64,000 nucleotides of DNA. It comes from Candidatus Limnocylindria bacterium. GTDB taxonomy: Bacteria > Chloroflexota > Limnocylindria > QHBO01. The stretch lies in contig DATBJR010000043.1 in the NCBI GenBank assembly GCA_036556325.1, forward strand, positions 3,285-67,284, read 5' to 3'. The notes below the pieces were generated by a model. The model was given only the letters and a program-made list of their open reading frames with translations. It did not search any database and was not told where the DNA came from. A program made the translations under genes and the position numbers. Below, in pieces: positions 36,226-64,000 of the stretch (the first letter of the stretch is position 1; every line of letters begins with the position of its first letter).

Positions 36226-36239
36226 CGCCCGTCTCGCGG

Positions 36240-38121: not shown

Positions 38122-39686
38122 CCCTCGGGCCCGAGGGACCGCGAGGCCAGGTACCAGCCCTGCAGGCTGTCCGCGCCGAAGAGCCGGCGCATCAGGCGGC
38201 GGATGTCGTCGCGGCGCGGGGTGAGGACGTAGGTGGCATTCAGGTCCGCCGGCGGATCGACGTAGCGCGGCACGCCCAGCACCACCCGCTTGATGTCCGG
38301 GCCGGTGATGAGCGGCAGCAGGGAGGCAAGGTCGCCGGCCTTGTCGCGCGGGAAGTCGGTGTGGACCGTGGCCCCCACCGCCTGCAGCGTGCGCGGCAGC
38401 TCGAAGAAGAGGTCGAGCTTCGCGAACTCGCGCCGCAGCTCCAGCAGGACCTGCTGTTGCCGATCGGCGCGCATGAAGTCGGTCAGCACTTCAACCGTGC
38501 CGTCGGGGAGCGTCAGCGTGCCCTTTCGCGCGCGTGCGTAGGCGAGGGCATGGATGCCGTCGTACTCGGCACAGCCCGGCTTCAGGACGATGCCGCGCTT
38601 GTAGCTGGTCCAGGTGTCGCCGGGCCCCTGGTAAGTGGGATCGTCGAGCGTCCCGTTCAGGCACAGCCGCAGGGGGCCGACCGCGTCGATGAGGTGGGTG
38701 AAGCCCTCGAGGTCGATGGTGGCGTAGTACTGGATATCGATCCCCAGGTAGAGGCCCACTGTTCGTTCGAGGGTCCGCAGGCCACAGGCGACTCCATCGG
38801 CGGCCGGCATGTCCGGGCACCAGCGGGCCGGGTCGTTGCCCGCCTCGGTCGACAGCGCGTTGATCTTGTTGGGGTAGAGACCGTCGGGATAGACGCTGCG
38901 ATCGGGTAGCGGCGTCATCACCGTGTCGCGCGGGACCGAGATCATGGCCGCCGTCTTGGCCACCGGATCGACGCTCACCGCCAGGATGGTGTCGGTCAGC
39001 GCCTCGTCCCGACCCGGGCCGCTGTCGATGCCGAGCAGCAGGAAGTTGATGCGCTCGGTCCCGTTCCACGCGTACTCCGGCCGGTTTAGGGGTCCGCCGT
39101 TCCCGAGACCGTGCCCGTCGCCCTCGCTGCTTCCCTGGCCGCCGAAGACGTCGCCCAGGGTGCTGTTGATCTCCGTCAGCAGCAGGCCCGCCCAGGCATG
39201 CATCACGATGGTGACCGCCATCATGACCGCCACCACGGCCAGCGTGCCGGCCCGGCGGGCCGAGGGAAGCTGGAGCCGGGCGCGGGATGCCACCGCATCG
39301 GCCGATGCGGACGCGGCGTGCACAGGGAACGCCGTCTCGCGCTGCCCGGTCGCTGTGGGCCGCGCCAGGCCGACCTGCCCGATCGCCAGCAGCCGCCACG
39401 CGAGCAGCGCCGCGTCGAGCACCACCAGCGCGGTCAAGAACGTGGCCGACAGGACGCTGTTCAGCACCTGCGAGCCGCCCGCCAGCAGCATCCCCAGCGC
39501 GACCAGGATGAGCAGCGCCACCGGCAGCGCAAACAGCGCGGCGAGGCGGCGACTGCCGGCGTAGGCCTGTCCGAGCCCCGGGAAGAGGAACGACAGGAAC
39601 GCCGCCAGCGCGGGATGGCGAGAGCTCCGCGATTCGATCATCGACACCAAAACGCCGCGGGCCATCCGCGCGTTGCGCGGCTGCAC
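38118..39686 (-). CDS. LytR-CpsA-Psr (LCP) family glycopolymer phosphotransferase
   Basis: N-terminal TM segments, then the LCP core FLLLGIDSGPGRDEALTDTILAVSVDP...MISVPRDT. The start is ambiguous (MQPRN at 39686 or MARGVL 6 codons in). It converges on the wecA 3' end with a 4-nt overlap. Confidence 0.85.
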   Translation of the reverse strand: MQPRNARMARGVLVSMIESRSSRHPALAAFLSFLFPGLGQAYAGSRRLAALFALPVALLILVALGMLLAGGSQVLNSVLSATFLTALVVLDAALLAWRLLAIGQVGLARPTATGQRETAFPVHAASASADAVASRARLQLPSARRAGTLAVVAVMMAVTIVMHAWAGLLLTEINSTLGDVFGGQGSSEGDGHGLGNGGPLNRPEYAWNGTERINFLLLGIDSGPGRDEALTDTILAVSVDPVAKTAAMISVPRDTVMTPLPDRSVYPDGLYPNKINALSTEAGNDPARWCPDMPAADGVACGLRTLERTVGLYLGIDIQYYATIDLEGFTHLIDAVGPLRLCLNGTLDDPTYQGPGDTWTSYKRGIVLKPGCAEYDGIHALAYARARKGTLTLPDGTVEVLTDFMRADRQQQVLLELRREFAKLDLFFELPRTLQAVGATVHTDFPRDKAGDLASLLPLITGPDIKRVVLGVPRYVDPPADLNATYVLTPRRDDIRRLMRRLFGADSLQGWYLASRSLGPEG

Positions 39687-46499: not shown

Positions 46500-47660
46500 G
46501 TGAGCGGGCTCCGCCTCGCCTTCCTGGGTGATCCTGGGAGCGTTCACCTGCACCGCTGGCTGGCCGCGTTCGTCGCGCGTGGTCATGCCGTCTGCCTCCT
46601 CGAGCCGCACGGCCACCCGGCTGACGATGCCGGACCGCCCGCCGGCGTCGAGCGACTGCAGTTCCGCTCGGTCCAGGCCGACCGCTCGCCGATGGGTTTG
46701 TGGCGGGCGCGCGCCGACCTGCGGCGCACCCTGGCCGCCTGGCGGCCGCACGTGCTGCACGCGCACTACGCCCGCAGCCCGGCCTGGCACGCCTGGCTGT
46801 CGGGGTGGCGACCCTACGTGGTGACGGTGTGGGGCTCGGAAGTCCTGCGTGCAGCCGAGATGCCGCGGCTCGGACGGCTGTTCACGCGGCTGGCGCTGCG
46901 TGACGCGGCGCTGGTGACGGCCGGCACGGAGCAGCTCGCGGCGGCGGCCGTGCGCCTGGGCGCGCGCCCCGAGCGCGTGCGCCATGCCGAGTTCGGGATC
47001 GACACCCTGCGCTTCCACCCCGGGATGGCAGGCGCGCAGCGCGCCGAGTTGCGGGCCGAGCTGGGGCTCGGCGACGCCCGGGTGGTCGTCTCGCCGCGCA
47101 TCCTGGCTCCGCTGTACCGGCACGAAGTGGTGATCGAGGCGCTGGCGCGCATGCCCGCGGACGTGCTGGTCCTCTCCAGCGGCATGCGGGCCGATCCCGC
47201 CGAGCGCCAGCGGCTCGAGGCGCTGGCGCGGCAGCTCGGCGTCGCCGAACGATGGCGCATCTTGCCGGCCATGGACGCCGATCGGATGGCGGACCTCTAC
47301 CGCCTGGCCGATGTGGTCGTGTCCGTACCCGAGAGCGACGCGATGCCACAGAGCGTGATGGAGGCCATGGCCACCGGGACGCCGGCGGTCGTCAGCGACC
47401 TGCCTGATCCGCGCGGGTGGCTTGGCGACCTGACACCGCAGCTGATCGTGCCGGTGGGTGACGCCGCCGCGACCGCGGCGGCAATGCAGCGTGCGCTGGC
47501 CCTGTCAGGCGGGGAGCGGCGCGCCTTGGGCGAGGAGCTGCGCCAACGCGTCATCGAGCGCGCCGACGCGACACGCAGCATGGACGAGGTGGAGGGCTGG
47601 TACCGCGAGCTGGCGGAGGCTCGCCACGGGCGCCGTGGCGGGCGGGCTGGCGCCGGATGA
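46500..47660 (+). CDS. GT4-family glycosyltransferase
   Basis: A GT-B C-terminal region (PESDAMPQSVMEAMATGTPAVVSD). A GTG start at 46500 is chosen. The upstream part of the track ORF overlaps the glnA 3' end. Confidence 0.8.
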   Translation: MSGLRLAFLGDPGSVHLHRWLAAFVARGHAVCLLEPHGHPADDAGPPAGVERLQFRSVQADRSPMGLWRARADLRRTLAAWRPHVLHAHYARSPAWHAWLSGWRPYVVTVWGSEVLRAAEMPRLGRLFTRLALRDAALVTAGTEQLAAAAVRLGARPERVRHAEFGIDTLRFHPGMAGAQRAELRAELGLGDARVVVSPRILAPLYRHEVVIEALARMPADVLVLSSGMRADPAERQRLEALARQLGVAERWRILPAMDADRMADLYRLADVVVSVPESDAMPQSVMEAMATGTPAVVSDLPDPRGWLGDLTPQLIVPVGDAAATAAAMQRALALSGGERRALGEELRQRVIERADATRSMDEVEGWYRELAEARHGRRGGRAGAG

Positions 47661-48985
47661 GCGACCGTCCCAGCTTCGGCTCGCAGGTGGCGCGGGTCTA
47701 CGCTGCGCGACTGGTGCAGTTCGGCTGCACGGTGGCGGTGGCCTTCCTGCTGGCTCGCCTGCTCGGGCCGAGCGGTCGCGGGGAGTACTCGCTCCTGCTG
47801 CTCCTGCCCTCCACGCTGTTTGCGCTGGGCCAGCTGGGGCTGCCGTCGGCCCTGACCTACTTCGCCGGCAGCGGGCGTTCGGTGGCCTCGCTGGCGGCGG
47901 CGGCCGCGGTGGTCGCCACCGTGCTGTCCGCCGTCCTGGTGGCCGGCAGCTTGGCGGCCCTGCCGACCCTGCACCCCGCGCTGTTCGCCGCCGCCCCGCT
48001 GGGGCTCCTGCAGGTCGCCACCGTGGCGCTGCCGATCCTGCTGGCCACCTCGTTCTTCGGCTCCATCCTGTGGGGCCGACAGCTGGTGCGGCCGTACAGC
48101 CGCGTGCTGGCGAGCCAGTCGCTCGGCTGGCTGCTGGCGGTCATCGGCCTGGTGGGCGTGGCCCACCTGGGGGTGACCGGCGCGCTGTCGGCGTACCTGC
48201 TGGTGACCGGGGTGGGCGCCGCGGCAGTGGTGGTGCTCGTACTCCGTGAGCGGTCGCGCGCGGCCGCCGATGAGCCGCCCGCCGGGGCCGTCAACCTCGG
48301 CGCGTTGCTGGGGTACGGCCTGCGCCTCTACCCCGCCGGCGTGTCGACCTTCCTGAGCTACCGCGCCGACCTCTTCCTGCTCAGCGCGCTGCGCGGCGAC
48401 GCGGCGGCCATTGGCCTGTACGCCCTGGCAGTGTCACTGGCCGAGATCACCTTCCAGGTCCCGGACTCGGTGGCCACCCTCTTCTATCCGCGGGTGGCCG
48501 GCGCCGAGCGGGAGGAGGCGGACCGCCTGGCGCCCTCGATCGCACGCTTCAGCCTGCTGCTCACCGGCCTCGCCGCCGTGGCGCTCATCCCGATGGCGTG
48601 GCTGGCCATCCGGATCGTGCTGCCGGGCTACGACGGCAGCCTGCTGCCCTTCCTGCTGCTGCTGCCCGGCACGGTGGCGCTGGGGCTGTCGAAGGTGCTG
48701 TCGGGCTACATCTCGGGGCTTGGGCGGCCCGAGCCGGTGGGCATCATCGCGATGGTGGCGCTGGGGGTGAACCTGGTCGTCAACGTCGTCCTCATCCCGC
48801 CGCTGGGCATCGCCGGCGCCGCACTGGCCTCGATGATCTCGTACAGCCTGCACGCCGCGCTGACCGTGTGGCTGGCCAGCCGTCTGTCAGGCGTCCGGCC
48901 GCTGGAATTCGTCACGCCCGGACGGGCCGAGGTCAGCCGGCTGGTCGAGCGGCTCGCCAGCCTCTGGCCCAGCCGCGCCGGCTGA
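47657..48985 (+). CDS. Wzx-type oligosaccharide flippase (MOP superfamily polysaccharide biosynthesis protein)
   Basis: 12-14 predicted TM helices of PST-family type. The ATG overlaps the upstream GT4 stop (ATGA). Confidence 0.75.
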   Translation: MSDRPSFGSQVARVYAARLVQFGCTVAVAFLLARLLGPSGRGEYSLLLLLPSTLFALGQLGLPSALTYFAGSGRSVASLAAAAAVVATVLSAVLVAGSLAALPTLHPALFAAAPLGLLQVATVALPILLATSFFGSILWGRQLVRPYSRVLASQSLGWLLAVIGLVGVAHLGVTGALSAYLLVTGVGAAAVVVLVLRERSRAAADEPPAGAVNLGALLGYGLRLYPAGVSTFLSYRADLFLLSALRGDAAAIGLYALAVSLAEITFQVPDSVATLFYPRVAGAEREEADRLAPSIARFSLLLTGLAAVALIPMAWLAIRIVLPGYDGSLLPFLLLLPGTVALGLSKVLSGYISGLGRPEPVGIIAMVALGVNLVVNVVLIPPLGIAGAALASMISYSLHAALTVWLASRLSGVRPLEFVTPGRAEVSRLVERLASLWPSRAG

Positions 48986-52105: not shown

Positions 52106-54184
52106 TCAGGGCAGGTGATCGAAGGCCCAGCTGAGCTGCTGGGCGAGGACCGTCGTGATGGTGGCGGTCAGGTGCCCGTTGTTCCGGTAGACGAGGTAGT
52201 CGCCCAGGATCAGCGGGCACGAATCGGCGCGGCAGAGCCAGGGGATGGTCGGGATGAGGTGTGCGCCGCTGGCCGCCGTGGTGCGGTGCTCGAGCTCCTC
52301 GTAGGCGCTGCTCACCAGGCGACGGCGCGGCACGGTGCAGGCCTCGACGCGCCCCTCGGTGGCCAGGCAGCGCGGCGGGTCGAAGTGGAAGTGCGGCGAT
52401 TCGCCGATGAGCACCACCCGCTCGGTCAGCCCGCGCAGAGCGGTCAGGGTGCGGAGCATGCCTGACTCCCACCCGGCATAGGCATTCGTGGGCAGCGGTT
52501 GCCCGCTCGCGCTGACCAGCTGGTAGTTGCGCGAGCCCGCGACGAAGATGATCGCCGGATGCTCGCGCGCGATGACGTCCATCGCCAGCGGGCGCCATTG
52601 GTCGCACTCCGTCAGGGGTCGGTCGAGCGAGGGCCGCCAGACGGAGACCTCGAACGGGGGGCAGGCGACCTTGATGACGGGCACCACCCGCCAGTGGCGG
52701 TCCGCCGCCATCAGCTCGATGGCCGGCAGCCACATGGCCGCATGCGAATCGCCGTACAGCACGACGGTGGTGCTGCCCTGCTGGTCCCCGACGACGCACG
52801 GATCGGGCTGCGTCTCGACGATCAGGGTGACGCAGGTTTCCTGGCCGATGGGCCCCCGATCGTCGCGCGCCTGGGCCAGCGTCGGTCGCAGGCCCTCGGG
52901 GATCGGCCCGGCGAGGATCGGCTGAAGCAGGGCCGGCTGCGGATCACCGCTGGCCGGCAGGCTCGGCGCCGGGACGTCCGCGACGGGCGGCGCGAACAGG
53001 CTGCCGCTGACCAGGACGGCGGCCAGCGCCACGCCGAGCGAGGAGGTGCCGGCGAACGCCAGGGTCCGCACGGTGGCGAGGCGTGAGCCGCGGCCGACCC
53101 GGAAGGGGGTCTCGATGAACCAGGTGCTGAGCGCCGCCACCCCGATCGAGACCAGTGCCAGCGCGACCCGGACCCAGCCGCCGCCATGGCCGATGAGGAG
53201 CGGGCCCAGGATCAGGATCGGCCAGTGCCAGAGGTAGAGCGAATACGAGATGCGACCGAACCAGCGGGGCACCGGCGTCGCCAGCGCGCGTGCCGCGAGG
53301 GTCAGATGGCGCTCGCCACCCACGATGACCAGCGCGGTGCCGCCGGCCGGCAGCAGCGCCGCGAGCCCCGGGAATGGTGTGGATGGGCTGATCAGCAGCA
53401 CGCCTGCGCCGATGAGCGCCAGCCCGAGGGCCGTGGCCGTCGACGCAACGAGCGTCGGCCAGCGGGCCGGGATGGCGAGCACCCCCAGCGCCGCCAGCGC
53501 GCCCAGGGCGAGCTGCCAGGCGCGGGTCGGCAGTGAGTAGAACGCCCACGGCGCGTCGACCTGGGTGATCCACAGCGAAAGCGCGAACGAGGCGACCGCC
53601 ACCGCCACGGCCACCGCCCACAGGCGACGCACGGCCCACAGCCGGGCTGCAACCAGGAGCAGGAGCGGCCAGAACAGGTAGAACTGCTCCTCCACGCCCA
53701 GCGACCAGTAGTGGAGCAGCGGCGACGGGGCACTCTGCGCCGCGAAGTAGTCGGTCGCCACCAGGGCAAAGCGGTAGTTCGACACGTAGACCGCGGCCGC
53801 CGCTCCGTCGCGCGCGACGTCCGGGAAGTCGATGTCGGGCAGCAAGATCCACGAGGCGACCAGCGTCACGGCGATCGCGACCAGTGCAGCGGGCAGCAGC
53901 CGGCGAGCGCGCCGGGCGTAGAAGCGCGGCAGGTCGATCCGCCCCGAGCCGCGCAGCTCGCGCAGCAGGAGGCCGGTGATGAGGTAGCCCGAGATCACGA
54001 AGAAGACGTCGACGCCGATGAAGCCGCCCTGCAGGAAGGGGAGTCGGGCGTGGAAGGCCAGCACGGCCAGGATGGCGACGGCGCGAAGGCCTTCGATATC
54101 GGGCCGGAAGTGCTCGCCGCCGACGCTCGAGACGGCGGCATCCCACGCGGACGCCTCCGTCGACGCAGCGCGCGCGGGGGTCAC
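52106..54184 (-). CDS. OatA-like O-acyltransferase: acyltransferase-3 (OafA/YrhL) membrane domain fused to C-terminal SGNH hydrolase domain
   Basis: The Acyl_transf_3 signature (RPDIEGLRAVAILAVLAFHA..GFIGVDVFFVISGYLIT) and about 10 TM helices. The C-terminal domain has VLYGDSHA (SGNH block I). The GTG at 54184 overlaps the GT26 stop (GTGA). Confidence 0.85.
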   Translation of the reverse strand: MTPARAASTEASAWDAAVSSVGGEHFRPDIEGLRAVAILAVLAFHARLPFLQGGFIGVDVFFVISGYLITGLLLRELRGSGRIDLPRFYARRARRLLPAALVAIAVTLVASWILLPDIDFPDVARDGAAAAVYVSNYRFALVATDYFAAQSAPSPLLHYWSLGVEEQFYLFWPLLLLVAARLWAVRRLWAVAVAVAVASFALSLWITQVDAPWAFYSLPTRAWQLALGALAALGVLAIPARWPTLVASTATALGLALIGAGVLLISPSTPFPGLAALLPAGGTALVIVGGERHLTLAARALATPVPRWFGRISYSLYLWHWPILILGPLLIGHGGGWVRVALALVSIGVAALSTWFIETPFRVGRGSRLATVRTLAFAGTSSLGVALAAVLVSGSLFAPPVADVPAPSLPASGDPQPALLQPILAGPIPEGLRPTLAQARDDRGPIGQETCVTLIVETQPDPCVVGDQQGSTTVVLYGDSHAAMWLPAIELMAADRHWRVVPVIKVACPPFEVSVWRPSLDRPLTECDQWRPLAMDVIAREHPAIIFVAGSRNYQLVSASGQPLPTNAYAGWESGMLRTLTALRGLTERVVLIGESPHFHFDPPRCLATEGRVEACTVPRRRLVSSAYEELEHRTTAASGAHLIPTIPWLCRADSCPLILGDYLVYRNNGHLTATITTVLAQQLSWAFDHLP

Positions 54185-54975
54185 TTCCGCCGCGCGCGGA
54201 GCATCCACCAGAAGAAGCGCGGGTCGTCCCAGAGGTAGCGGCGCGCCAGGCGGCGCGGATCATGGACGAGCCGATACGCCCATTCCAGGCCGACCCGCGT
54301 CATCCACGCCGGCGCGACCGGTTGCCTGCCGCCGAGCACGTCGATCGCCTGGCCGATGCCGACCATCACTGTGCGTGGCAGCGCGGCGGCGTGGCGCGCC
54401 ATCCAGCGATCCTGCTTCGGCGAGCCAAGCCCGACGAACAGGACCTGCGGATCGGCATCGGCCAGCAGCCGCACCGCCGCCTGGTCGGCCTCGCCGCCGA
54501 TTGCGAAGCCCATGGGCGGCGAGGTCGCGGCCCGCACATCGCCACCCAGCTCGCGCAGCCGCTGCGCCGCCGGCTGGGTGGCGCCCGGCAGCCCGCCCAT
54601 CAGCGCCAGGCGCAGCCGGTCGGGGTGGCGCGCCAGCGCGGCCGGCAGCAGCCGTCCGGTGATGCTGCCGCGCAGCGGGCTGCCCGCCAGGCGCGCGCCG
54701 TACACCACACCCATGCCATCTGGCACGCGTAACCGCGCCCCGTCGATGATGGCGCGGAAGGACGGGTCGCGATGCGCGCGGACCACGTAGTCGACGTTGG
54801 TGGTGACCACGTACCCGCCGCTGCCCTCCCGCGCCCAGCCGGCGATGGTCTCGACGGTGCCCTCGAAGCCGATGTCGTCGACGGCAATGGAGTCGATCTG
54901 CACCCTGGGACGGGTGGCCGGTGCATCGGTCGCGCGGCGGTCCGACGAGGCGATGGCAGGAATGTTGCTTTCCAA
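54181..54975 (-). CDS. GT26 WecG/TagA/CpsF-family glycosyltransferase (N-acetylmannosamine/ManNAcA transferase)
   Basis: GT26 motifs (RVPDGMGVVYGARLAG, VLFVGLGSPKQDRWM). Confidence 0.85.
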   Translation of the reverse strand: MESNIPAIASSDRRATDAPATRPRVQIDSIAVDDIGFEGTVETIAGWAREGSGGYVVTTNVDYVVRAHRDPSFRAIIDGARLRVPDGMGVVYGARLAGSPLRGSITGRLLPAALARHPDRLRLALMGGLPGATQPAAQRLRELGGDVRAATSPPMGFAIGGEADQAAVRLLADADPQVLFVGLGSPKQDRWMARHAAALPRTVMVGIGQAIDVLGGRQPVAPAWMTRVGLEWAYRLVHDPRRLARRYLWDDPRFFWWMLRARRK

Positions 54976-55049: not shown

Positions 55050-55937
55050 GTGCTGCCAACGTTCCTGATCGGTGGTGCGCCGAAGGCCGGCACCACCGCG
55101 CTGTGGGCGCTGCTCGACGCGCATCCCGAGGTCTTCATGACGCGGATGAAGGAACCGCGCTTCTTCACGCGCAACCTGAACGAGCCCGCGCCCGGCGTCC
55201 ACATGATCGGGCCACCTCGCCGCGTGAACTTCGACCGCGGGATCGACTGGTACCAGTCGCTGTTCGCGGGCAGCGAGGGCGCGCTGGCGCGCGGAGAGGC
55301 GAGCCCGCAGTACATCGGCGCGCAGGATGGGCCGGAGATCATGGAGCGCTGGGTGCCGGGGGTGAAGATCGTGTTCGCCCTGCGGCAGCCGGTCGAACGT
55401 GCCTACTCGCAGTACTGGCAGCATTGGAAGAAGGGCTGGCGGATGGCGCCCTTCGAGCGGCTGCTCGAGGACGAGCCGAGCCTGCGCTATCTCGAGTACA
55501 TGAGCCGCTATGCCCAGCATCTCGAGCGCTATCGCCACGCTTTCGGCCCGGAACGGGTTCATCTCGTCCTGTTCGACGACCTCCGCAAGGAACCGCAACG
55601 GGTCTACCGGGAGCTGTGCCGCTTCATTGGCGTCGATGACACGTTCCAGCCCGCGTCGTACGACGAGGCCTACAACGAGTTCACGTCGCCGCGGTTTCGC
55701 TGGCTGCAGCGCGGGCTGATGGCGACGCACTTCGCACGGTTCGGCCGGCTCGTCCCGAGCGGCGCGCGGCCGCGGCTGCGCCGGCTCCGCCTCCGGGTCG
55801 AGGGCATGAACCGCAGCGCCAGCCGCTATGTGCCGCTCGACCCTGCATTGCGCGCGCGGCTGACGGAGCGCTTCGAGGACGACATCGCCTACGTGGAGCG
55901 CCTCACCCGGCCACTTCCCGAATGGCGAGCGCGCTGA
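55050..55937 (+). CDS. sulfotransferase family protein, type C (Sulfotransfer_1-like)
   Basis: The N-terminal 5'-PSB motif FLIGGAPKAGTTAL, and 3'-PB-like RQPVERAYSQY. Confidence 0.8.
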   Translation: MLPTFLIGGAPKAGTTALWALLDAHPEVFMTRMKEPRFFTRNLNEPAPGVHMIGPPRRVNFDRGIDWYQSLFAGSEGALARGEASPQYIGAQDGPEIMERWVPGVKIVFALRQPVERAYSQYWQHWKKGWRMAPFERLLEDEPSLRYLEYMSRYAQHLERYRHAFGPERVHLVLFDDLRKEPQRVYRELCRFIGVDDTFQPASYDEAYNEFTSPRFRWLQRGLMATHFARFGRLVPSGARPRLRRLRLRVEGMNRSASRYVPLDPALRARLTERFEDDIAYVERLTRPLPEWRAR

Positions 55938-55938
55938 T

Positions 55939-56838
55939 TCAGCCGGTGCGGCTCCAGGCGCCCAGGTCGCGACCGATCAGCTCGCCCAGGGCGGCGACCT
56001 CCGGGGCGAGCTCGGCAGTCAGCCGGCGACGGAGCTCGGCATCCATCGGCCGTCGCGCCTCCGGGACGCTGTTGGCGCTCACGACCGTGTCCCGCAGGCG
56101 GTGGACCAACGGGAAGCGACGGAGCAGCGGGACGACCCGGCGCAGCGGGCCCGGCGGGCGGTAGATCAACCGCTGCAGCACGCCGGAGCGCGCCCGGCGA
56201 TTCGGATTGCGCACTCCCAGGTCAACCCCCACGTTCGGGTCAACGCGGAGGAAGGCGAACGTGCCACGCACCACGGCGGCTGCATCGGCGACCAGGTCGT
56301 CGTGGACGATGACGTGGACCCGCTCGCGACCGAAGACGTCGAAGTAGCGCTGCAGCTGCTCGGCGAAGCGGACGCTGTGCCGGTAGAACAGCGCCTCGCG
56401 CCGCAGGGCGCCCGCCGGGATGCGACGTCCAGCGCGCCGATCGGCCTCGGCGGCCAGCGCCTCGCCGAAGTCGACCAGGTCTTCCCGCTGGTTGAAGCGC
56501 AGCTGGCTGTGCTGGGCGTGCATCACGTCGACCGGGTTGCGCAGCATGACGATCGCCTGGGCCCCCGGCGAGAAGGCCTCGATCTCGCGCGCCGCGCTCG
56601 CCGAGTAGAGGTACCACGGCGAGGCCTCGCCGACGCGCTGGCCCGGGCGGGCATCGGCGAAGAGGCGAAGGTACTCGTCCTCGGTCATGCGCCGATACCG
56701 GGCATCCAGGTCCGCCCCGAAGTACATCGGCTCCTTGTGGAACGGCATGAACACCTGCGGGTGCTGGCGCAGGGACTCGTAAAGCGACGTGGTGCCCGCT
56801 TTGAAGGCACCGACGATGAAGAAATCGGGGCGCGTCAT
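55939..56838 (-). CDS. sulfotransferase family protein, type C (paralog 2)
   Basis: FFIVGAFKAGTTSL PSB motif, and MLRNPVDVMHAQHSQ. It is about 55-60% identical by eye to the next gene. The ATG overlaps the upstream paralog's stop (ATGA). Confidence 0.8.
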   Translation of the reverse strand: MTRPDFFIVGAFKAGTTSLYESLRQHPQVFMPFHKEPMYFGADLDARYRRMTEDEYLRLFADARPGQRVGEASPWYLYSASAAREIEAFSPGAQAIVMLRNPVDVMHAQHSQLRFNQREDLVDFGEALAAEADRRAGRRIPAGALRREALFYRHSVRFAEQLQRYFDVFGRERVHVIVHDDLVADAAAVVRGTFAFLRVDPNVGVDLGVRNPNRRARSGVLQRLIYRPPGPLRRVVPLLRRFPLVHRLRDTVVSANSVPEARRPMDAELRRRLTAELAPEVAALGELIGRDLGAWSRTG

Positions 56839-57749
56839 GCGGCGCGGACGCGGGAGCCGTCCAGCCAGGCCGACAGGTCGCGCCCCACCAGCTCGCCCAG
56901 CTCCCTGATCTGCGGCGCGAACTCCTCCAGCAACCGGCTTCTGAGCGTCGCGTCCATGGGAGGCCGGCTCGCGGCGGAGCTGTTCAGACGCAGCACCCGC
57001 TCGCGCACGGCATGCGCCAGCGGGAAGCGGCGGATGATGGGCACCAGCCTCAGCAGCGGACCGGGTGGCTGGTAGACGAGCCGCTGCAGGGCGCGGAAGC
57101 GGACGCGCTTGTTCGGGTTGCTGACGGCGAAGTCCGGGGCGAACGTCGGGTCCACGCCCAGGAACTCGAGCACGCGACGATAGGTGCCCGGCGTGTCGGC
57201 CACGAAGTCGTCGAAGACGATCACATGCACCCGCTCGCGGCCGAAGGCATGGAGGTAGCGGCGCAGCTGGTCGGCAAAGCGGACGCTCTCTCGGTAGTAG
57301 AGGTTCTCGACTCGCAGCGGCCCGGGTGGAAGGCGGCGGCCAGCCCGCCGTTCCGGCTCGGCGTCGAGCGCCTCACCGAAGTCGGCGATGTCCTCCTCCA
57401 CGTTGAACAGCAGCTGGCTGTGCTGGGCGTACATCACGTCCACCGGGTTGCGCAGCATCACGATGATCTTCCCCCCCGGCGCGGCAGCGTGGATCTCCGT
57501 TGCCGCCGAGCGGGAGTACAGGTACCAGGCCGATGCCTCCCCGATGCGCTGGCCGGGCTTGGCGTCCGCGAACAGGGCTTCGTACTGGGCGCGGGTCATG
57601 CGCCCGTAGCGACGGGTCAGATCGTCGCCGAAGAACAGCGGCTCCTTGTGAAAGGGCATGAAGATCTGCGGGTGCGGTCGCAGGTAGTCGTACAGGGCCG
57701 TGGTGCCACACTTGAAGGCACCCACGATGTAGAAGTCCGGAATCGGCAT
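56835..57749 (-). CDS. sulfotransferase family protein, type C (paralog 3, tandem duplicate)
   Basis: FYIVGAFKCGTTAL PSB motif. Long nucleotide stretches are near-identical to 55939-56838, for example the GTGCTGGGCGT(G/A)CATCACGTC(G/C)ACCGGGTTGCGCAGCAT segments. Confidence 0.8.
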   Translation of the reverse strand: MPIPDFYIVGAFKCGTTALYDYLRPHPQIFMPFHKEPLFFGDDLTRRYGRMTRAQYEALFADAKPGQRIGEASAWYLYSRSAATEIHAAAPGGKIIVMLRNPVDVMYAQHSQLLFNVEEDIADFGEALDAEPERRAGRRLPPGPLRVENLYYRESVRFADQLRRYLHAFGRERVHVIVFDDFVADTPGTYRRVLEFLGVDPTFAPDFAVSNPNKRVRFRALQRLVYQPPGPLLRLVPIIRRFPLAHAVRERVLRLNSSAASRPPMDATLRSRLLEEFAPQIRELGELVGRDLSAWLDGSRVRAA

Positions 57750-57869: not shown

Positions 57870-59501
57870 TTGACTGAGGCCTGGATTCCTGCCGATCACG
57901 GCAGCGGGCAGCAGGGCCTGCGCCGCCAGGTTGCGCGCGGCCTGACCTGGACCTTCGTCCACACCTGGGGCGGCCAGCTGCTGAGCCTGCTGGTGTTCCT
58001 GGTGCTGGCCCGCCTGGTCAGCGTCAACGATTTCGGGCTGGTGGCCTACGCCGCGCTCTTCGTGGCCTTCGCCCAGCTGCTGATCGACCAGGGCTTCGGC
58101 GACGCGATCATCCAGCGGCCCAGCGTCACCCGTGGGCACATCGACACCGCCTTCTGGGTCGCGGTTGCCACCGGGCTGCTGCTGTCGGTGATCGGCGTGG
58201 TCATCGCCGCACCGCTGGCGAGTTTTCTCACCGGCAAGGCGCCGGCCGATGCGCCGCGGCTGACCCCCATCATCCAGGTCCTCTCGCTGTTGTTTGTCAT
58301 CTCGTCGCTCAGCAGCACCCAGCAGGCGCTCCTGCGCCGCGAGCTGGCGTTCCGCAGCCTGGCCACCCGCGGCCTGCTGGCGCTGGGCGGCGGCGGCGTG
58401 GTGGGGATCGTCATGGCGTTCATGGGCTTCGGCGCCTGGGCGCTGGTCGGGCAGCAGATCGCGGCCGCGCTGATCGCGGTCGTCACCCTGTGGACGATCA
58501 GCCCGTGGCGCCCGGGCCTGGAGGTTTCGCGGGCGAACTTCACCGAGCTGTTCAACTTCGGCATCAAGGTCGTCGGCTCCGACATCCTGACCTTCCTGTC
58601 CCGCAACAGCGACAATTTCCTGGTCGGCATCTTCCTGGGCCCGACGCCGCTCGGCCTGTACGCGGTCGCCTATCGGATCCTGGACACGACCCAGAAGGTG
58701 CTCGTCAGCGTCTCGCGCCGGTTGGCATTTCCAGCCCTTTCGAAGCTCCAGGGCGACCGGGAGCGGATGTCGCGGGCGTACCTGCAGCTGACGCGGATCG
58801 CGGGTTCGGCCATCCTCCCGGGCTACGTCGGCCTGGCCCTGGTGTCGCCGGAGATGACCGTCGCCCTCTTCGGTGCCAAGTGGCAGTACGCCGGCGTCGT
58901 CTCCTCGGTGCTGTTCCTCATCGGCCCGGTCCTCTCGATCCAGGCGTTCTCGACCTCGCTCCTGACGGCAGCCGGCCACCCGTCGATCGTGTTCCGCTTC
59001 CGGCTGATCAGCACGATCGTCAACGTGCTCGGCTTCTTCCTGGCGGTGCAGATCGGTAAGGACATCCTGTGGGTGGCGTTTGCCTTTGCGTTGCGCGGCT
59101 ACCTGCTCCTCCCGCTGAACCTGTCATGGCAGCGACGGTACGCCGGCATTCCCATTGGCGCGTACCTGCTGCAGATGCGCGGCACCGCGCTGGCCACGCT
59201 GGCGATGACGGCGGTCGTGCTGGCAGTGAAGCTGCTGCTGTACGGGGTGCTTCGACCGACGCCGCTGCTGCTCGTGGAGGTCGTCGCCGGCGCGGTGACC
59301 TTCCTGCTGGCGATGTGGCTGCTGGACCGCCGCCTGCTGCTCGAGATGTGGCGCATCACCCGCCAGAGCGTCCCCGGCCTGCGCCGCTTCTCCGGCGTGC
59401 TGCCGCGCGGTCGGCCGCGGGCGCTGGCCGAAGCCTCGCGTGAGCCCGCGGCCGAGGCGAAAGCGGATCCGCTCAGCCCATCGATCCGGGGCGACGAATG
59501 A
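57870..59501 (+). CDS. Wzx-type flippase (MOP/PST polysaccharide biosynthesis protein), second copy
   Basis: 14 TM-helix PST-family topology with an N-terminal conserved segment (GLTWTFVHTWGGQLLSLLVFLVLARL). Confidence 0.8.
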   Translation: MTEAWIPADHGSGQQGLRRQVARGLTWTFVHTWGGQLLSLLVFLVLARLVSVNDFGLVAYAALFVAFAQLLIDQGFGDAIIQRPSVTRGHIDTAFWVAVATGLLLSVIGVVIAAPLASFLTGKAPADAPRLTPIIQVLSLLFVISSLSSTQQALLRRELAFRSLATRGLLALGGGGVVGIVMAFMGFGAWALVGQQIAAALIAVVTLWTISPWRPGLEVSRANFTELFNFGIKVVGSDILTFLSRNSDNFLVGIFLGPTPLGLYAVAYRILDTTQKVLVSVSRRLAFPALSKLQGDRERMSRAYLQLTRIAGSAILPGYVGLALVSPEMTVALFGAKWQYAGVVSSVLFLIGPVLSIQAFSTSLLTAAGHPSIVFRFRLISTIVNVLGFFLAVQIGKDILWVAFAFALRGYLLLPLNLSWQRRYAGIPIGAYLLQMRGTALATLAMTAVVLAVKLLLYGVLRPTPLLLVEVVAGAVTFLLAMWLLDRRLLLEMWRITRQSVPGLRRFSGVLPRGRPRALAEASREPAAEAKADPLSPSIRGDE

Positions 59502-60850
59502 GCGAAGACCTGGATCGAGCAGCGTCATCGGCCGCCGCAGGCAAGCCGGCTGGGCCGACGGAGCAACCGCCGGAGCTCGGCAAGGCGATGTGGGGCCTGA
59601 CGGGAGCGCGGCCTGGCCTGCGGATGGCGGCCAAGTTCGCACGGCGCAACGCCATGTCGGCCGTCTTCCTGGCCAGCCGCCTGTCGCGTCGCGACAAGCG
59701 GGTGTGGCTCTTCGGCAACCACAAGGGCTTCCGTGACAACCCGCGCTACCTGGCCGAGCACATCGTGGCCGAGCATCCCGAGATCGAGGTCTGGTGGCAG
59801 GCTCGCAGCCGCCGGGAGGCGGAGGCGGCTCGCGCGGCGGGGCTCAAGGTCGTGCTGCGCAGCTCGCGGACGAGCGCACGGCTGCACCTGCGGGCCGGCG
59901 TGGCCTTCCTCTGCTCCGGCTTCATGGATCTCCGCGTGCCGCGGCTGGGCGGCGCCTACATCGTCCACCTCTACCACGGCACGGCGCTGAAGCGGATCTC
60001 CCTGGACGTCGACTTCGAGCGGTTCGTGTCCGGGTCGCGCTTCGGGCGCTGGTACGCCGCGCGGCAGCACGCGGGGCTGCAGTCGCGCCATCGCCGCGTC
60101 TCCATGGTGGTTGCGGCCGGTGAGCTGGCCAGGCGCCGCTTCGAGACGGCCTTCGGCCTGCCGCCGGAACGCATCCCGATCCTCGGTACACCGCGCTTCG
60201 ACGTGATCCTGGGCGGTCCGGCCTATCGGCGCGTGGCCGGCGACGACCTGCGCGGGCGCCTGGGCATCGGCGCCGCCGACCACCTGGTGCTGTGGCTGCC
60301 GACCTGGCGCGAATCGGGCGACGCCGGCTGGCTGCCGGCCGTCGACAGGGCCGCGGTGGACAAGGCGCTCGGGGGTTCGAAGGTCCGGATGCTGGTCAAG
60401 CCGCATCCCTACGCGGACTTCGACGTCTACCGCCAGCGCCTGCCCGATCACCCGGCCCTGCGCCTGCTCCGCGAGGATGACACCGACGTCAACGCCCTGC
60501 TGCACATCGCCGACACGCTGGTGACCGACTACTCCAGCGCCATGTTCGATTACGCGCTGCTCCATCGGCCCATCCATTTCTTCGCCCCGGATGCCGCCGA
60601 GTACACCGAGGGTCGTGGCTTCTACGAGCCGTACGACGAGCTGACCGGTGGCCATCAGCATCTCGCCTGGGGCACGCTGCTGCCCGCGCTGCGAGAGGCC
60701 GCCGAAGGCACGGACGCGGCCGGCCTGGCCATGGCCGAGCGCATCGCCGCGCTCGCTGGCAACTGCGAGGAGCCAGGCAACAACGAGCGAATCTTCCGCG
60801 CCGTCGCCGAGGCCGCCGGCGTGCCGCTCCCGGACGGACGAACGGCATGA
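59498..60850 (+). CDS. CDP-glycerol:poly(glycerophosphate) glycerophosphotransferase family (TagB/TagF-like, Glyphos_transf)
   Basis: Signature segments HLVLWLPTWRE and ADTLVTDYSSAMFDYALLHRPIHFFAPD. It overlaps the Wzx stop by 4 nt. Confidence 0.85.
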   Translation: MSEDLDRAASSAAAGKPAGPTEQPPELGKAMWGLTGARPGLRMAAKFARRNAMSAVFLASRLSRRDKRVWLFGNHKGFRDNPRYLAEHIVAEHPEIEVWWQARSRREAEAARAAGLKVVLRSSRTSARLHLRAGVAFLCSGFMDLRVPRLGGAYIVHLYHGTALKRISLDVDFERFVSGSRFGRWYAARQHAGLQSRHRRVSMVVAAGELARRRFETAFGLPPERIPILGTPRFDVILGGPAYRRVAGDDLRGRLGIGAADHLVLWLPTWRESGDAGWLPAVDRAAVDKALGGSKVRMLVKPHPYADFDVYRQRLPDHPALRLLREDDTDVNALLHIADTLVTDYSSAMFDYALLHRPIHFFAPDAAEYTEGRGFYEPYDELTGGHQHLAWGTLLPALREAAEGTDAAGLAMAERIAALAGNCEEPGNNERIFRAVAEAAGVPLPDGRTA

Positions 60851-62145
60851 GCGAGGAGACGCCGCGCGCGATCACGGCGCCCATCAAGGCCCTCCAGGAC
60901 GAGCGCGGCGCGCGTCGCATGGTCACCAGCTTCGTGCGGCGCATCGGCGGGGCCGGCATCTACTACCTCAGCCACCTGTCGCGGCGCGACCCGACAGTGT
61001 GGGTGTTCGGCAATCACAAGGGCTTCCGCGACAATCCACGCTACCTGGCCGAGCACATCGTCCATGCCCATCCCGAGCTGGAGCCATGGTGGATCGCCCG
61101 CACGCCCGCCGAGGCGCAGCTGGCCAGGGATGCCGGCCTGCACGTGGCCATGTTCGCCGGCAAGCTCGGGGCTCGCATCCAGCGGCGGGCAGGGGTGGGG
61201 TTCCTCTCGAACGCCTTCATCGACCTGCGCTCGCCGTACCTCGGCGGCGCGCTGATCGTCCACCTCTACCACGGCACCGCCCTCAAGCGGATCCTGCTGG
61301 ACATGGACGTCACCCGGGTCATGCGTGGCTCGCCCCTGACGCGGGCGTTCAAGCGACTGCATCGCTGGTCGATCGCCCGCCGGCTGCGCCAGGTGGACCT
61401 GATCATGGCCGCCGGCGAGCTCGCGCGGGAGCGGTTCGTGACGGCCTTCGGCATCCCGGCGGAGCGTATCCCACCGGTCGGCACGCCGCGCTTCGACGTC
61501 ATCCAGGGGGGCGCCGCCTACGACCGCGTGGTGCACGGAGACCTGCGCGCCCAGCTTGGCGTGCAGCCGGACGAGCACCTGGTGCTGTGGCTGCCCACCT
61601 GGCGCGAGCACGGGGATGCTCCCTGGCTGCCGGCGCTCGACGCCTCGACGGTCGAAGCGGCGTTCGGGCGCACCAACGTGGTGATGCTGGTCAAGACCCA
61701 TCCGTATGCCGACCAGGAGGTCTACGAGCAGCGGCTGCCGCCGCATCCGAAGATCCGCCTGCTGCCCGAGGCGGACGTGGACGTCAACACCCTGCTGCGC
61801 ATCGCCGATACGCTGGTGACCGACTACTCCAGCGCCTTCTTCGACTACGCCCTGCTGGAGCGGCCCATCCACTTCTTCGCCCCCGATACGGACGAGTACC
61901 GTGGTGGACGGGGACTCTACGAGCCGTTCGAGAGGCTGACGGGCGGGCAGCACCACACCGAGTGGCACTCGCTGCTGACGGCGCTGGCGGACGCGTCCCG
62001 CGGCGAGGACGAGCAGGGCATGGCCATGATGCGCCGCGTCGTCGCCTTCGCCCGCAACAACACCGAGCCGGGCAGCTGTGAGCGCATCGTGCAGACCGTG
62101 GCACAGGCGGCCGGGGTGCGGCTGCAGCCCGCCCGCGCCGACTAG
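60847..62145 (+). CDS. CDP-glycerol glycerophosphotransferase family (TagF-like), tandem paralog
   Basis: The same signatures (HLVLWLPTWRE, ADTLVTDYSSAFFDYALLERPIHFFAPD). Extensive nucleotide identity to 59498-60850. The ATG overlaps the preceding stop. Confidence 0.85.
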   Translation: MSEETPRAITAPIKALQDERGARRMVTSFVRRIGGAGIYYLSHLSRRDPTVWVFGNHKGFRDNPRYLAEHIVHAHPELEPWWIARTPAEAQLARDAGLHVAMFAGKLGARIQRRAGVGFLSNAFIDLRSPYLGGALIVHLYHGTALKRILLDMDVTRVMRGSPLTRAFKRLHRWSIARRLRQVDLIMAAGELARERFVTAFGIPAERIPPVGTPRFDVIQGGAAYDRVVHGDLRAQLGVQPDEHLVLWLPTWREHGDAPWLPALDASTVEAAFGRTNVVMLVKTHPYADQEVYEQRLPPHPKIRLLPEADVDVNTLLRIADTLVTDYSSAFFDYALLERPIHFFAPDTDEYRGGRGLYEPFERLTGGQHHTEWHSLLTALADASRGEDEQGMAMMRRVVAFARNNTEPGSCERIVQTVAQAAGVRLQPARAD

Positions 62146-62885
62146 GACGGCGGCGGCTCCAGGAACTTCGGCAGCAGCCGGCGCGCGGTTTCCAGGTCCT
62201 CGGCGAAGTCGATCTCGGTCCACGCGCGCCCCCGGGTTGGCACGGCGACGGCGTCGGCGCCGCCGTCGGCCAGGAGCCGGTTGATGGCCGCCTCGAAATA
62301 GGAGCCGATGGCGCCGTCCGCCACCTCCCGCTCGATGGCGTCGACCAGCCCGGGCACGATCCGCGCCCGGAACAGCCCGATCCCGATGAACTCGCCCGCC
62401 GTCCGCTCGTCCGGAAGCTCCTTGGAGAGGTGCAGGATGCGGTCGCCCGCGACCTCGGCCTTCATCTGCTCCGGCTCGCACGCCCGCAGGTCGACCGGCA
62501 GCGCGATATCGGCTTCGGCCGCCAGCAGGTCGTCGAGGATGGTCGGGTCGAACACCGTATCGGCATGGGCGTAGACGAAATCGTCATGGAGCCGGTCGCG
62601 CGCGAACCAGGCCGAGCCGAGCACGTTCGTCACGCTCCAGAACGGGTTGAAGACGAACTCCAGGCCGATGCGTCCCGCGGCGCGCCGCTCGGCCGCCGCC
62701 TGCAGCAGATCGCGGCGATAGCCGGTGACCAGCACCGCTCGCCCGACGCCGCGCGCGATGAGCACCTCCAGCTGGAGCTCCAGCGGGCTGATTCCGCCCA
62801 GGTCGATCAGCGCCTTCGGCCCGTCGTCGGTGAGGCCGCCCAGCCGCGACCCGCGTCCGGCAGCCATGATCAGCGCATCGGTCAC
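62142..62885 (-). CDS. sugar/alditol-phosphate nucleotidyltransferase (GT-A-like NTP_transferase fold; candidate CTP:glycerol-phosphate or ribitol-phosphate cytidylyltransferase)
   Basis: N-terminal IMAAGRGSRLGGLTDDGPKALIDLG nucleotide-binding loop. The GTG at 62885 overlaps the upstream dehydrogenase stop (GTGA). The 410-aa track ORF is a frame artefact extending upstream. Confidence 0.7.
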   Translation of the reverse strand: MTDALIMAAGRGSRLGGLTDDGPKALIDLGGISPLELQLEVLIARGVGRAVLVTGYRRDLLQAAAERRAAGRIGLEFVFNPFWSVTNVLGSAWFARDRLHDDFVYAHADTVFDPTILDDLLAAEADIALPVDLRACEPEQMKAEVAGDRILHLSKELPDERTAGEFIGIGLFRARIVPGLVDAIEREVADGAIGSYFEAAINRLLADGGADAVAVPTRGRAWTEIDFAEDLETARRLLPKFLEPPPS

Positions 62886-64000
62886 CAGCTCGCCTCGTAG
62901 AGGGCCGTCAGCGCGTCCGGATCGGTGGGTCCCGGGTCGTTCTCCAGCGTTCCCTCGACCATGCCCGCCAGGCGGGGCAGATCCTCGCGGCGGATGCCCA
63001 GGTCGCGCAGGCGCGGCTGCAGGTCGATGCGCTCCATGAACGACAGCACCGAGGCGGCGACCGCCGCGGCCGCGTCGCCCTCGTCCCGGGCGGCACTGCC
63101 GATGCCCGCCGCGAAGGTGGCCAGCCGCTCCGGAGCGTGCCGCAGCACGCGGTCCAGCCACGCCGGCGTGAGCGCCGCCACGCCGGTGGCATGCTCGCTG
63201 TGCGCAACTGACCCCAGCGGGTACTGCATCCGGTGCGGCAGGCAGGTGGTGGAGTTGGCGAGGTTGACGCCCATCAGCATCGCCGCGTAGGCGGCGGCCG
63301 AGCGCGCCGCCAGGTCGCCGGGCTGCGCCATCGCTCGCGGCACGGCGTCGAGCAAGCGTGGCAGCGCCTCCCATGCCAGCGTGCGCGTCACCGGGCTGGC
63401 GGCGCGCGAGATCGTCGTCTCCACCGCGTGAGCCACGGCATCGAAGCCGGCGCGGGCCGTGACCCGCGGCGGGCAGCCGACCGCCAGCTCCGGATCGACG
63501 ATCGCCGCGCGCGCGGCGACGCCGCGGCCCCGAATGCCATGCTTCCGGCCGGTGTCGGGGTCCGTCACGATCGCGCCGCGGCTGACCTCCGCGCCGGAGC
63601 CCGCCGTGGTGGGCAGCGCGACCACGGGCAGCCCCACCGGGCTGTCGAAGCGGGGCCCGGTGGCCAGCTGCTCAGCATCCAGCACCGAGTGCGCGCTGAC
63701 GGCCGCCGCCTTGGCCAGGTCGATGACACTGCCACCACCCACCGCCACCACCACCGTCGCCCCGTGCTCCCGGAACGCGTCGGCCGCCGCCAGGACGCTG
63801 CCGAGCTCGGGTTCCGCGGTCACCTGGCAGCGGACCACGGCCTCCACCCCCGCCGCCCGCAGCGCGTTTTCGATCTCCGCGCCGTGCGGTCCGGCGGCGA
63901 GCGAGTGCGCGCCGGTGACAAGGGCTGCGCGCTCGCCGAACGCGGCCGCGATCCTGCCGACCTCGGCCCGCCGGCCGACGCCGAAGGAGACGGTCGTATC
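62882..64000 (-). CDS. iron-containing alcohol dehydrogenase / glycerol(-1-phosphate) dehydrogenase family (DHQS-like fold); 5' end beyond window
   Basis: A GGGSVIDLAKA glycine-rich NAD motif, DPDTGRKHGIRGRGVAARAAIVDPEL, and metal-His motifs (AVAHAVE, H..TGVAALTP). The frame stays open to the window edge. Confidence 0.7.
   Translation of the reverse strand, partial: DTTVSFGVGRRAEVGRIAAAFGERAALVTGAHSLAAGPHGAEIENALRAAGVEAVVRCQVTAEPELGSVLAAADAFREHGATVVVAVGGGSVIDLAKAAAVSAHSVLDAEQLATGPRFDSPVGLPVVALPTTAGSGAEVSRGAIVTDPDTGRKHGIRGRGVAARAAIVDPELAVGCPPRVTARAGFDAVAHAVETTISRAASPVTRTLAWEALPRLLDAVPRAMAQPGDLAARSAAAYAAMLMGVNLANSTTCLPHRMQYPLGSVAHSEHATGVAALTPAWLDRVLRHAPERLATFAAGIGSAARDEGDAAAAVAASVLSFMERIDLQPRLRDLGIRREDLPRLAGMVEGTLENDPGPTDPDALTALYEASW

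Follow-up and report, generated by a model that had tools for sequence, protein, structure and literature searches.

From which donor do the two TagF-like phosphotransferases encoded near the end of a Candidatus Limnocylindria contig draw the group that they transfer? The DNA analysed here (the window) is a stretch of 64,000 nucleotides from this Chloroflexota bacterium (assembly GCA_036556325.1, contig DATBJR010000043.1, positions 3,285 to 67,284), with a G+C content of 72%. At 59498-64000, two tandem genes for TagF-like proteins converge on the genes for a nucleotidyltransferase (NT) and an iron alcohol dehydrogenase (ADH). A preliminary description of this DNA took the latter two to be an alternative supply of a cytidine diphosphate (CDP)-alditol. 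Comparison with relatives places them at the end of a conserved cassette that also encodes a class II aldolase and a kinase of the FGGY family, and we put at about 70% the probability that this cassette makes a CDP-alcohol that is used by the TagF-like enzymes.

Two converging units

The plus strand unit opens with a gene for a Wzx-type flippase (Polysacc_synt_3; 57870..59501; PF13440, 3e-80), followed by TagF-like phosphotransferase 1 (450 aa; 59498..60850) and TagF-like phosphotransferase 2 (432 aa; 60847..62145). Both are Glyphos_transf proteins, as the preliminary description had said, and match PF04464 with E around 1e-49 (2.6e-49 and 1.2e-49, respectively). The stop codon of the Wzx gene overlaps the start of the first TagF-like gene in an ATGA, and the same overlap joins the two TagF-like genes, so that the three plus strand genes can be taken as one operon.

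On the minus strand lie the gene for the NT (62142..62885; 247 aa; LicC/PntC/IPCT type; PF12804 at 4e-12, and also PF00483) and, upstream of it, that for the ADH (62882..64000; classical group III; PF00465 and PF25137). Of the ADH, 372 residues are visible; its frame leaves the window, with the start codon beyond 64000 and about 10 N-terminal residues outside. The NT starts with a GTG at 62885; the list of open reading frames gives a frame of 410 aa, and the identical 247-aa call was made on a public contig of 2.9 kb. The ADH stop overlaps the NT start (GTGA), which suggests translational coupling of the two genes. The stop codons of TagF-like 2 and the NT fall in a common palindrome, CTAG at 62142-62145, that reads TAG on each strand. 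These convergent ends have neither an intergenic spacer nor a terminator hairpin, and the identical 4-nt overlap is present in loci L001-L003 of the set described below. A scan for promoters and terminators over 57.5-64 kb gave nothing beyond shuffled expectation.

A four-gene cassette in relatives

What lies upstream of the ADH gene? To see beyond the window end, relatives of the ADH were sought by sequence in 185,579 species genomes, and their loci were fetched. In L002 (89% identity) and L003 (80%), genes for an FGGY kinase and a PF01116 class II aldolase are found directly upstream of the ADH, and the usual order of the cassette is class II aldolase, FGGY kinase, ADH, NT. Read against these relatives, the NT and ADH genes of the window form the end of a conserved four-gene operon. 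The convergent two-gene unit of the preliminary description does face the TagF-like pair, but it corresponds to the distal half of that operon.

The combination of kinase, ADH and NT occurs in 32 of the 33 loci of the first tblastn set, about 24 of which also have the aldolase; with the loci that were fetched later, again by tblastn, the numbers rise to about 35 and 27. At least seven phyla are represented among the carriers (Limnocylindria/Chloroflexota, Methylomirabilota, Verrucomicrobiota, Gemmatimonadota, Bacillota, Spirochaetota and that of Vibrio), and these include Verrucomicrobiales, Gemmatimonadaceae, Lachnospiraceae, Selenomonas, Paenibacillaceae, Treponema and Vibrio breoganii. The kinase keeps about 40% identity between phyla, compared with about 36% in the NT, 33% in the ADH and 30% in the aldolase. 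Profile searches, in which 8000 top candidates were scored, gave at least 1123 homologs of the NT and at least 709 of the kinase, and an exhaustive scan yielded 2637 NT-family clusters at E<=1e-10. The best 120 matches of the NT and kinase profile searches carry generic names only, such as "phosphocholine cytidylyltransferase family" or "xylulokinase".

Which gene adjoins the NT depends on the lineage, but in every case its product belongs to a class of enzyme that uses a CDP-alcohol. In most loci (Limnocylindria, most Bacillota, Treponema) this is a TagF-like protein; a CDP-alcohol phosphatidyltransferase takes its place in L004, L007 and L043, the carriers of this kind being Methylomirabilota (with two copies), Verrucomicrobiales and a marine contig; and a LicD gene stands beside the cassette in one Clostridiales locus (L010). 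The same partnerships recur as gene fusions. An FGGY kinase is fused to an iron ADH in P0196 (816 aa; L043, 286-2736), the NT is fused to a Glyphos_transf domain in four representatives (P0268, P0308, P0327 and P0309), one of which, at 1773 aa, adds glycosyltransferase family 2 (GT2) and TPR domains, and two further representatives (P0317 and P0386) join the NT to CDP-OH_P_transf. In Selenomonas, the cassette is split into a kinase and NT pair and an aldolase and ADH pair. Taken together, the synteny, the transferases next to the NT and the fusions argue that the four enzymes share one pathway, the product of which is most likely a CDP-activated small alcohol-phosphate that serves as the donor for the TagF-like enzymes.

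Other genes gather around the cassette in particular lineages. In Bacillota, the genes that precede it are as a rule those for a GDPD phosphodiesterase and for a fusion of a TagD-like cytidylyltransferase with a GFO/IDH/MocA oxidoreductase (L035, 2223-11979; L037, 2198-12016; also L010, L011, L015, L017, L018, L020, L022-L024, L027, L028 and L031), joined in L035 and L037 by genes for two AP_endonuc_2 proteins. In L037, from Lacrimispora, this block sits in a flagellin-glycosylation island, between a flagellin gene and genes for Maf/MptE-like, NeuB and CMP-sugar synthetase proteins; the matching block in L035, from Kineothrix, lies amid GT2 glycosyltransferase genes. Vibrio breoganii, a cultured gammaproteobacterium and thus a tractable carrier, has the full aldolase-kinase-ADH-NT cassette (L041, 3854-8028) beside genes for UDP-glucose dehydrogenase, an epimerase and a GalU-like protein.

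A carrier of known glycan structure was sought by comparing a low-GC cassette with E. coli genomes by blastn, with no match. Against plasmids, tblastn gave only distant LicC-like NTs and gluconokinases, and a match in Fusobacterium comprised the NT without the rest of the cassette. A literature search on the gene combination, on CDP-threitol or CDP-erythritol and on flagellin-linked versions found nothing relevant. As far as we have found, the cassette is a conserved, widespread and apparently undescribed variant of the CDP-alcohol donor pathways.

The enzymes and their closest relatives

What kind of dehydrogenase is the ADH? The preliminary description placed it in an iron-ADH/sn-glycerol-1-phosphate dehydrogenase (G1PDH) family, as an AraM/EgsA-like enzyme that could make sn-glycerol-1-phosphate. 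The first half of this assignment stands, given the matches to PF00465 and PF25137, but the second does not. On models of classical iron ADHs, the whole protein scores between 130 and 197 bits (ErcA 197, the choline dehydrogenase GbsB 180, the sulfoacetaldehyde reductase SarD 173, PsrA of phosphonate clusters 157, and lactaldehyde reductase, FucO, 140), whereas the models for G1PDH and glycerol dehydrogenase (GldA) give 25-27 bits on the Rossmann segment only; the G1PDH model NF002022, with a cut-off of 413, matches at 25 bits over residues 21-103. The PDB relatives of the ADH, 41 in number, are methanol, 1,3-propanediol, lactaldehyde and butanol dehydrogenases, with no G1PDH among them. A positive control was met by chance in Streptomyces fungicidicus plasmid p1 (L039), where the ADH matches G1PDH structures, including 4RGQ, at 4e-40. 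The comparison is therefore able to detect a G1PDH where one is present, and the window ADH has only 25 bits in common with this homolog. By these measures, the ADH is a classical enzyme of the FucO/DhaT/SarD/PsrA type and not EgsA/AraM-like; it groups with the likes of 1,3-propanediol dehydrogenase, an outcome that the preliminary description had named as telling against its own proposal.

All of 13 orthologs of the ADH keep the GGGS motif for NAD binding (G88-G89-G90-S91) and the metal ligands D187, H191, H256 and H270, and since the motif and all four ligands are present in the window protein, it is probably an active enzyme. An invariant Arg adjoins a metal-binding His in the motif CLPH-R-MQY (CLPHRMQYP), in which the Arg and the Tyr stand where canonical iron ADHs have H-x-x-A-H.

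The NT was compared with the PDB as a profile of 19 orthologs. Over positions 2-238, this profile matches LicC from Streptococcus pneumoniae (1JYK, 3e-30), PntC from Treponema (6PD1, 3e-28) and IPCT (4JD0, 1e-16), and two more IPCT structures, 2XME and 4MND, also match over the full length. Sugar-1-phosphate enzymes of the RmlA/GlmU type, in contrast, match only the first 60-70 residues. Because of this difference, the NT can be grouped with the cytidylyltransferases that convert small phospho- or phosphono-alcohols to their CDP (or CMP) derivatives, and its activity is most likely cytidylyl transfer; the GlmU/RmlA-type affinity that could have spoken against the preliminary description was not found. 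Its identity to LicC (CTP:phosphocholine), PntC (CTP:2-aminoethylphosphonate) and IPCT (CTP:inositol-1-phosphate) cytidylyltransferases is at most about 30%; the 19 orthologs have 34 invariant columns, and the motifs of the NT are intact. It matches NTP_transf_3, and IspD was unmatched at the threshold used, the orthologs carrying only weak precomputed matches to IspD. The use of cytidine triphosphate (CTP) and the formation of a CDP-alcohol are supported indirectly, in that genes for CDP-alcohol phosphatidyltransferases and TagF-like enzymes lie next to that of the NT or are fused to it.

The preliminary description had also recognized that this is neither a TagD nor a TarI/TarJ system, and here it was right. 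The HIGH motif of TagD-type enzymes (G.FD..H.GH) is absent from all six frames of the window, Pfam annotation of 54 predicted genes gave no CTP_transf_like (TagD), TarI or TarJ protein, and the reductase is an iron ADH rather than a medium-chain dehydrogenase/reductase (MDR).

The kinase and the aldolase are known from the relatives. The kinase (512 aa; PF00370/PF02782) has xylulokinase as its best NCBIfam model, at 257 bits and below the cut-off, and is nearest to xylulokinase and gluconokinase, not to glycerol kinase. Its catalytic Asp is intact. A signature of the group is an Asn in place of the first Mg-binding Asp of the ASKHA fold (LNLGLKSIR), together with the C-terminus ENL. The aldolase (PF01116, 5e-81) passes the cut-off of the "ketose-bisphosphate aldolase" subfamily and has intact Zn and catalytic residues. 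Where a solved KbaY-type relative has N-V-D-T, it has N-I-S-T/S; the canonical motif is N-x-D-T. A basic residue is kept at the distal-phosphate site.

The TagF-like proteins score 168.6 and 169.7 bits on PF04464 (cut-off 22.1) and 40-79 bits on the NCBIfam equivalogs for TarF, TarL and TarB, the cut-offs of which are 500-1000, so they do not qualify as equivalents of these. TagF-like 2 aligns to TagF from Staphylococcus epidermidis (3L7I) at 1e-25. The histidine of HGT(A/P)LKR and a second one are kept relative to 3L7I (YHGTALKR/WHGTPLKR and KTHPY/RMHYL); we take both to be the catalytic histidines described with the TagF structure. All four enzymes of the cassette and the TagF-like proteins look catalytically intact.

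Did the TagF-like pair arise recently, as the preliminary description supposed from long identical runs of nucleotides? The paralogs are 58-61% identical in protein, 68% in DNA and 56% at third codon positions, and the longest exact run that they have in common is 27 nt, within the conserved TLVTDYSSA motif. Each copy has its own ortholog in L002 and L003, at 86-93% identity, and in both of these loci the paralogs are again about 59-61% identical to each other. On this pattern of identities, the duplication is old, not recent.

Which alcohol is made?

How might the donor be made and used? The cassette would turn a sugar-derived aldehyde into a small alcohol-phosphate, and reaction with CTP would then activate this as a CDP-alcohol. 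The aldolase would supply an aldehyde or ketone, the ADH would convert this to the alcohol, the kinase would form the phosphate ester and the NT would complete the donor. We infer this order from the pairing of kinase with NT and of aldolase with ADH in Selenomonas, and from the several loci that have no aldolase. The two TagF-like enzymes, co-transcribed with Wzx, would put alcohol-phosphate units, in phosphodiester linkage, on a lipid-linked repeat unit at the cytoplasmic face. This repeat unit would be started by TagO-like and TagA-like enzymes and is presumably sulfated; Wzx would export it, a Wzy-like protein would polymerise it and an LCP ligase would link it to the wall.

All three isomers of glycerol-phosphate have been found in bacterial surface polymers (PMC8587909). 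A tentative choice for the alcohol is glycerol, in any isomer, phosphorylated outside the GlpK/TagD route, and glycerol-2-phosphate would then be the likeliest form, in analogy to the CDP-2-glycerol pathway of the pneumococcus, the logic of which the inferred order of reactions would share. Somewhat short of even odds is the broader proposition that the cassette makes a CDP-alcohol-phosphate by chemistry not yet described, its product being a glycerol-phosphate isomer of an unusual kind, derived from free glycerol, or a unit of two to four carbons (C2-C4) other than glycerol, and that it does so across at least seven phyla for TagF-like enzymes, CDP-alcohol phosphatidyltransferases and LicD, with wall polysaccharides and possibly lipids and the flagellin glycans of Lachnospiraceae as targets. 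The preliminary description had a CDP-glycerol of unusual stereochemistry, or another CDP-alditol, feeding the polymer; of this, the supply of a CDP-alcohol without TagD or TarIJ is retained, and the mechanism by way of sn-glycerol-1-phosphate is given up.

Several observations weigh against the pathway as drawn here. The aldolase and the kinase lie outside the window, their presence in this genome being read from the relatives, and the only public contig that matches this genome over the cassette stretch is the one of 2.9 kb. The aldolase is missing from five to seven of the loci. The kinase is without the glycerol-binding residues of GlpK and has the Asn at the first Mg-binding Asp, as judged against a GlpK sequence that aligns as a genuine FGGY member; a pocket that is not conserved in this way neither supports nor excludes glycerol as the substrate. 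Finally, the invariant Arg of the ADH and the basic residue of the aldolase could mean that the intermediates are phosphorylated and that the reactions follow a different order.

The last point would suit an ordinary donor, CDP-sn-glycerol-3-phosphate, for which the aldolase would yield glyceraldehyde-3-phosphate, the ADH would reduce this to sn-glycerol-3-phosphate, the NT would replace TagD and the kinase would salvage a sugar or glycerol. The GDPD genes that adjoin the cassette in many Bacillota loci belong to a family that acts on glycerophosphodiesters, and the partner transferases bear the family name of CDP-glycerol glycerophosphotransferases. Such a route, however, would be redundant in the many Bacillota loci with a TagD-like domain beside the cassette, and it would duplicate GpsA and central glycolysis. 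It also needs no kinase, yet the kinase is the best conserved member of the cassette and is found fused to the ADH. Because of the TagD-like domains, and of a kinase without the GlpK residues, we regard the ordinary donor as quite unlikely. The Arg of the ADH and the altered motif and basic residue of the aldolase, taken with relatives that act on two-carbon compounds, could also point to phosphorylated intermediates or to a smaller or larger alcohol. The product might then be a CDP-alcohol new to bacterial glycans, for example one with a C4 polyol phosphate, or with 2-hydroxyethyl phosphate as a C2 unit that comes from phosphoglycolaldehyde. A ketose kinase, a ketose-phosphate aldolase, a phospho-aldehyde reductase and a cytidylyltransferase would then act in turn, a route that the Arg and the motif change fit. 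The ADH relatives SarD, PsrA and GbsB use X-CH2-CHO aldehydes in which X is charged, the closest structures to the NT are those of LicC and PntC, enzymes that activate P-(O)-CH2-CH2-X compounds, and the kinase is closer to xylulokinase and gluconokinase than to glycerol kinase. These clues are all at the level of similarity. No FGGY kinase is known to supply a class II aldolase in this manner, and the split pairs of Selenomonas better suit the alternative order; moreover, we know of no C2 or C4 substituent of this sort in any glycan, which counts against it as well. Both such a new alcohol and the route drawn for it are rather doubtful.

The model of the preliminary description, in which an AraM/EgsA-like G1PDH reduces dihydroxyacetone phosphate and the NT makes an sn-1 CDP-glycerol, can draw on the fact that both kinds of dehydrogenase belong to the wider superfamily of iron ADH and dehydroquinate synthase (DHQS)-like proteins, and such an arrangement does exist, in S. 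fungicidicus p1. The scores set out above, against both the G1PDH model and the true homolog, and the PDB matches go the other way, and the model leaves the conserved aldolase and FGGY kinase unexplained, which makes it very improbable for the window. The same must be said of a phosphonate (2-hydroxyethylphosphonate or 2-aminoethylphosphonate) or phosphocholine decoration of the PhpC/PntC or LicA/LicC/LicD type. The ADH scores 157 bits on TIGR03405 (Phn_Fe-ADH) and 180 on GbsB, PntC and LicC are the best PDB matches of the NT, and the family name given by the Prokaryotic Genome Annotation Pipeline (PGAP) is "phosphocholine cytidylyltransferase family protein", but these scores are all far below the equivalog cut-offs. 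The cassette neighbours scanned with Pfam, or with precomputed Pfam matches, in about 13 loci included no phosphoenolpyruvate (PEP) mutase, no phosphonopyruvate decarboxylase and no LicA-type kinase; the position directly upstream of the ADH is held by the FGGY kinase in every case, in most cases together with the aldolase. A specific candidate of this kind, a PhpC-like ADH and a PntC-like NT with pepM and ppd upstream, was rejected because the relatives have the aldolase and the FGGY kinase in that place.

The textbook donors for phosphodiester decorations of the cell surface are CDP-glycerol (made by TagD), CDP-ribitol (TarIJ) and CDP-choline (LicAC). The cassette, if the pathway proposed here is true, would be a further self-contained donor pathway, with carriers that span poorly known soil phyla (Limnocylindria, Methylomirabilota), Bacillota of the rumen and gut, Treponema and Vibrio. 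To identify its product would give a function to several thousand genes and would predict a phospho-alcohol epitope on the walls and flagella of gut commensals.

Comparison with known systems

The closest logic is that of the pneumococcal Gtp1/Gtp2/Gtp3 and WchX proteins of serotypes 23F and 15, which provide an isomer of CDP-glycerol without TagD and are encoded in a Wzx/Wzy capsule locus (PMC1391919). That locus encodes a reductase, a phosphotransferase and a cytidylyltransferase, and a dedicated transferase adds the glycerol-phosphate side group (PMC1391919). All of these enzyme classes are present here, the ADH, NT and TagF-like proteins in the window and the kinase in the relatives. The likeness is one of enzyme classes and pathway logic; the pneumococcal locus lists no aldolase, and its gene order differs (wchX-gtp1-gtp2-gtp3). 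The activities of Gtp1-3 were reportedly established by Wang et al. in 2010 (J Bacteriol).

The teichoic acid pathways (TagD/TagF and TarI/TarJ/TarL) also use CDP-alditol transferases of the TagF family, and their TagO-like, TagA-like and LCP genes have counterparts in the cluster. Unlike these pathways, the window has no HIGH-motif TagD, IspD-type TarI or zinc-MDR TarJ, and it has an export set of the Wzx/Wzy type instead of a TagGH ABC transporter. Relatives of the NT adjoin or are fused to CDP-alcohol phosphatidyltransferases, as in IPCT/DIPPS, but the upstream enzymes of the cassette differ entirely from those of the LicC, PntC and IPCT systems and include no choline kinase, PEP mutase or inositol-phosphate synthase. 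The triad for fucose and rhamnose cleavage brings together the same three classes, an FGGY ketose kinase, a class II aldolase and the FucO iron ADH. The cassette aldolase, however, belongs to PF01116 (FBA/KbaY type), whereas FucA and RhaD are in the separate class II aldolase/adducin family PF00596. Since the triad of the cassette goes together with a cytidylyltransferase and with phosphotransferases, its role would be biosynthetic, not catabolic.

In S. fungicidicus p1 (L039, 5187-9559), genes for a DUF5941 protein, a LicC-family NT, the true G1PDH homolog and a CDP-alcohol phosphatidyltransferase stand in a row, next to glycosyltransferase, ABC transporter and hopanoid (hpnCDE) genes. As in the window, a LicC-family NT lies beside a dehydrogenase of the superfamily and near a transferase that uses a CDP-alcohol, but there is neither an aldolase nor an FGGY kinase. 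That cluster fits the model of the preliminary description, and the window does not.

The surface-polymer cluster and the rest of the window

What kind of polymer would receive the alcohol-phosphate? The genes described above lie in a cluster that runs from about 35 to 64 kb. It contains a TagO/WecA-type GT4 initiating transferase (37156-38121, plus strand; PF00953, 3e-39), an LCP ligase (38118-39686, minus strand; PF03816, 2e-23) and a TagA/WecG-type glycosyltransferase (54181..54975, minus strand; PF03808, 6e-44), along with a Wzy_C protein, a GT1 glycosyltransferase, an inorganic pyrophosphatase and an AT3-SGNH acyltransferase. Three sulfotransferases (PF13469/PF00685) are encoded at 55050-55937 on the plus strand and at 55939-56838 and 56835-57749 on the minus strand, and the cluster as a whole has five sulfotransferase genes (35293-36968 and 55050-57749). 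TagGH-type ABC transporters, TagD, TarI/J and GpsA were looked for over the whole window and not found. The product of the cluster is likely a Wzx/Wzy-made, wall-anchored, sulfated polysaccharide with alcohol-phosphate groups, to judge from this gene content.

Sulfotransferases flank the cassette in L002 and L003 too, and in L008, from an uncultured bacterium, a bifunctional ATP sulfurylase/adenosine phosphosulfate (APS) kinase is encoded near it (4824-6701). Together with the sulfotransferases of the cluster, these neighbours suggest a polymer that is both sulfated and decorated with phosphodiesters. For monoderm Chloroflexota, this offers a first handle on the chemistry of a wall polymer, here apparently carrying both modifications.

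Elsewhere in the window, a complete GlgE-type alpha-glucan set is encoded at 1710-13081, with GlgE, a TreS-like alpha-amylase, a maltokinase-like protein, isoamylase, 4-alpha-glucanotransferase and GlgB, and MreB and MreC lie at 13902-15839. A predicted protein of 1118 aa with GH18, SH3_3, FlgD_ig and Big_5 domains (17852-21208) has a neighbour of 589 aa with Big_5. Three open reading frames, at 13074-13772, 21322-22323 and 47657-48985, have a coding-type G+C content at third codon positions (above 0.9) and no Pfam match; the last of these lies inside the polysaccharide cluster, where it adjoins the Wzy_C gene.

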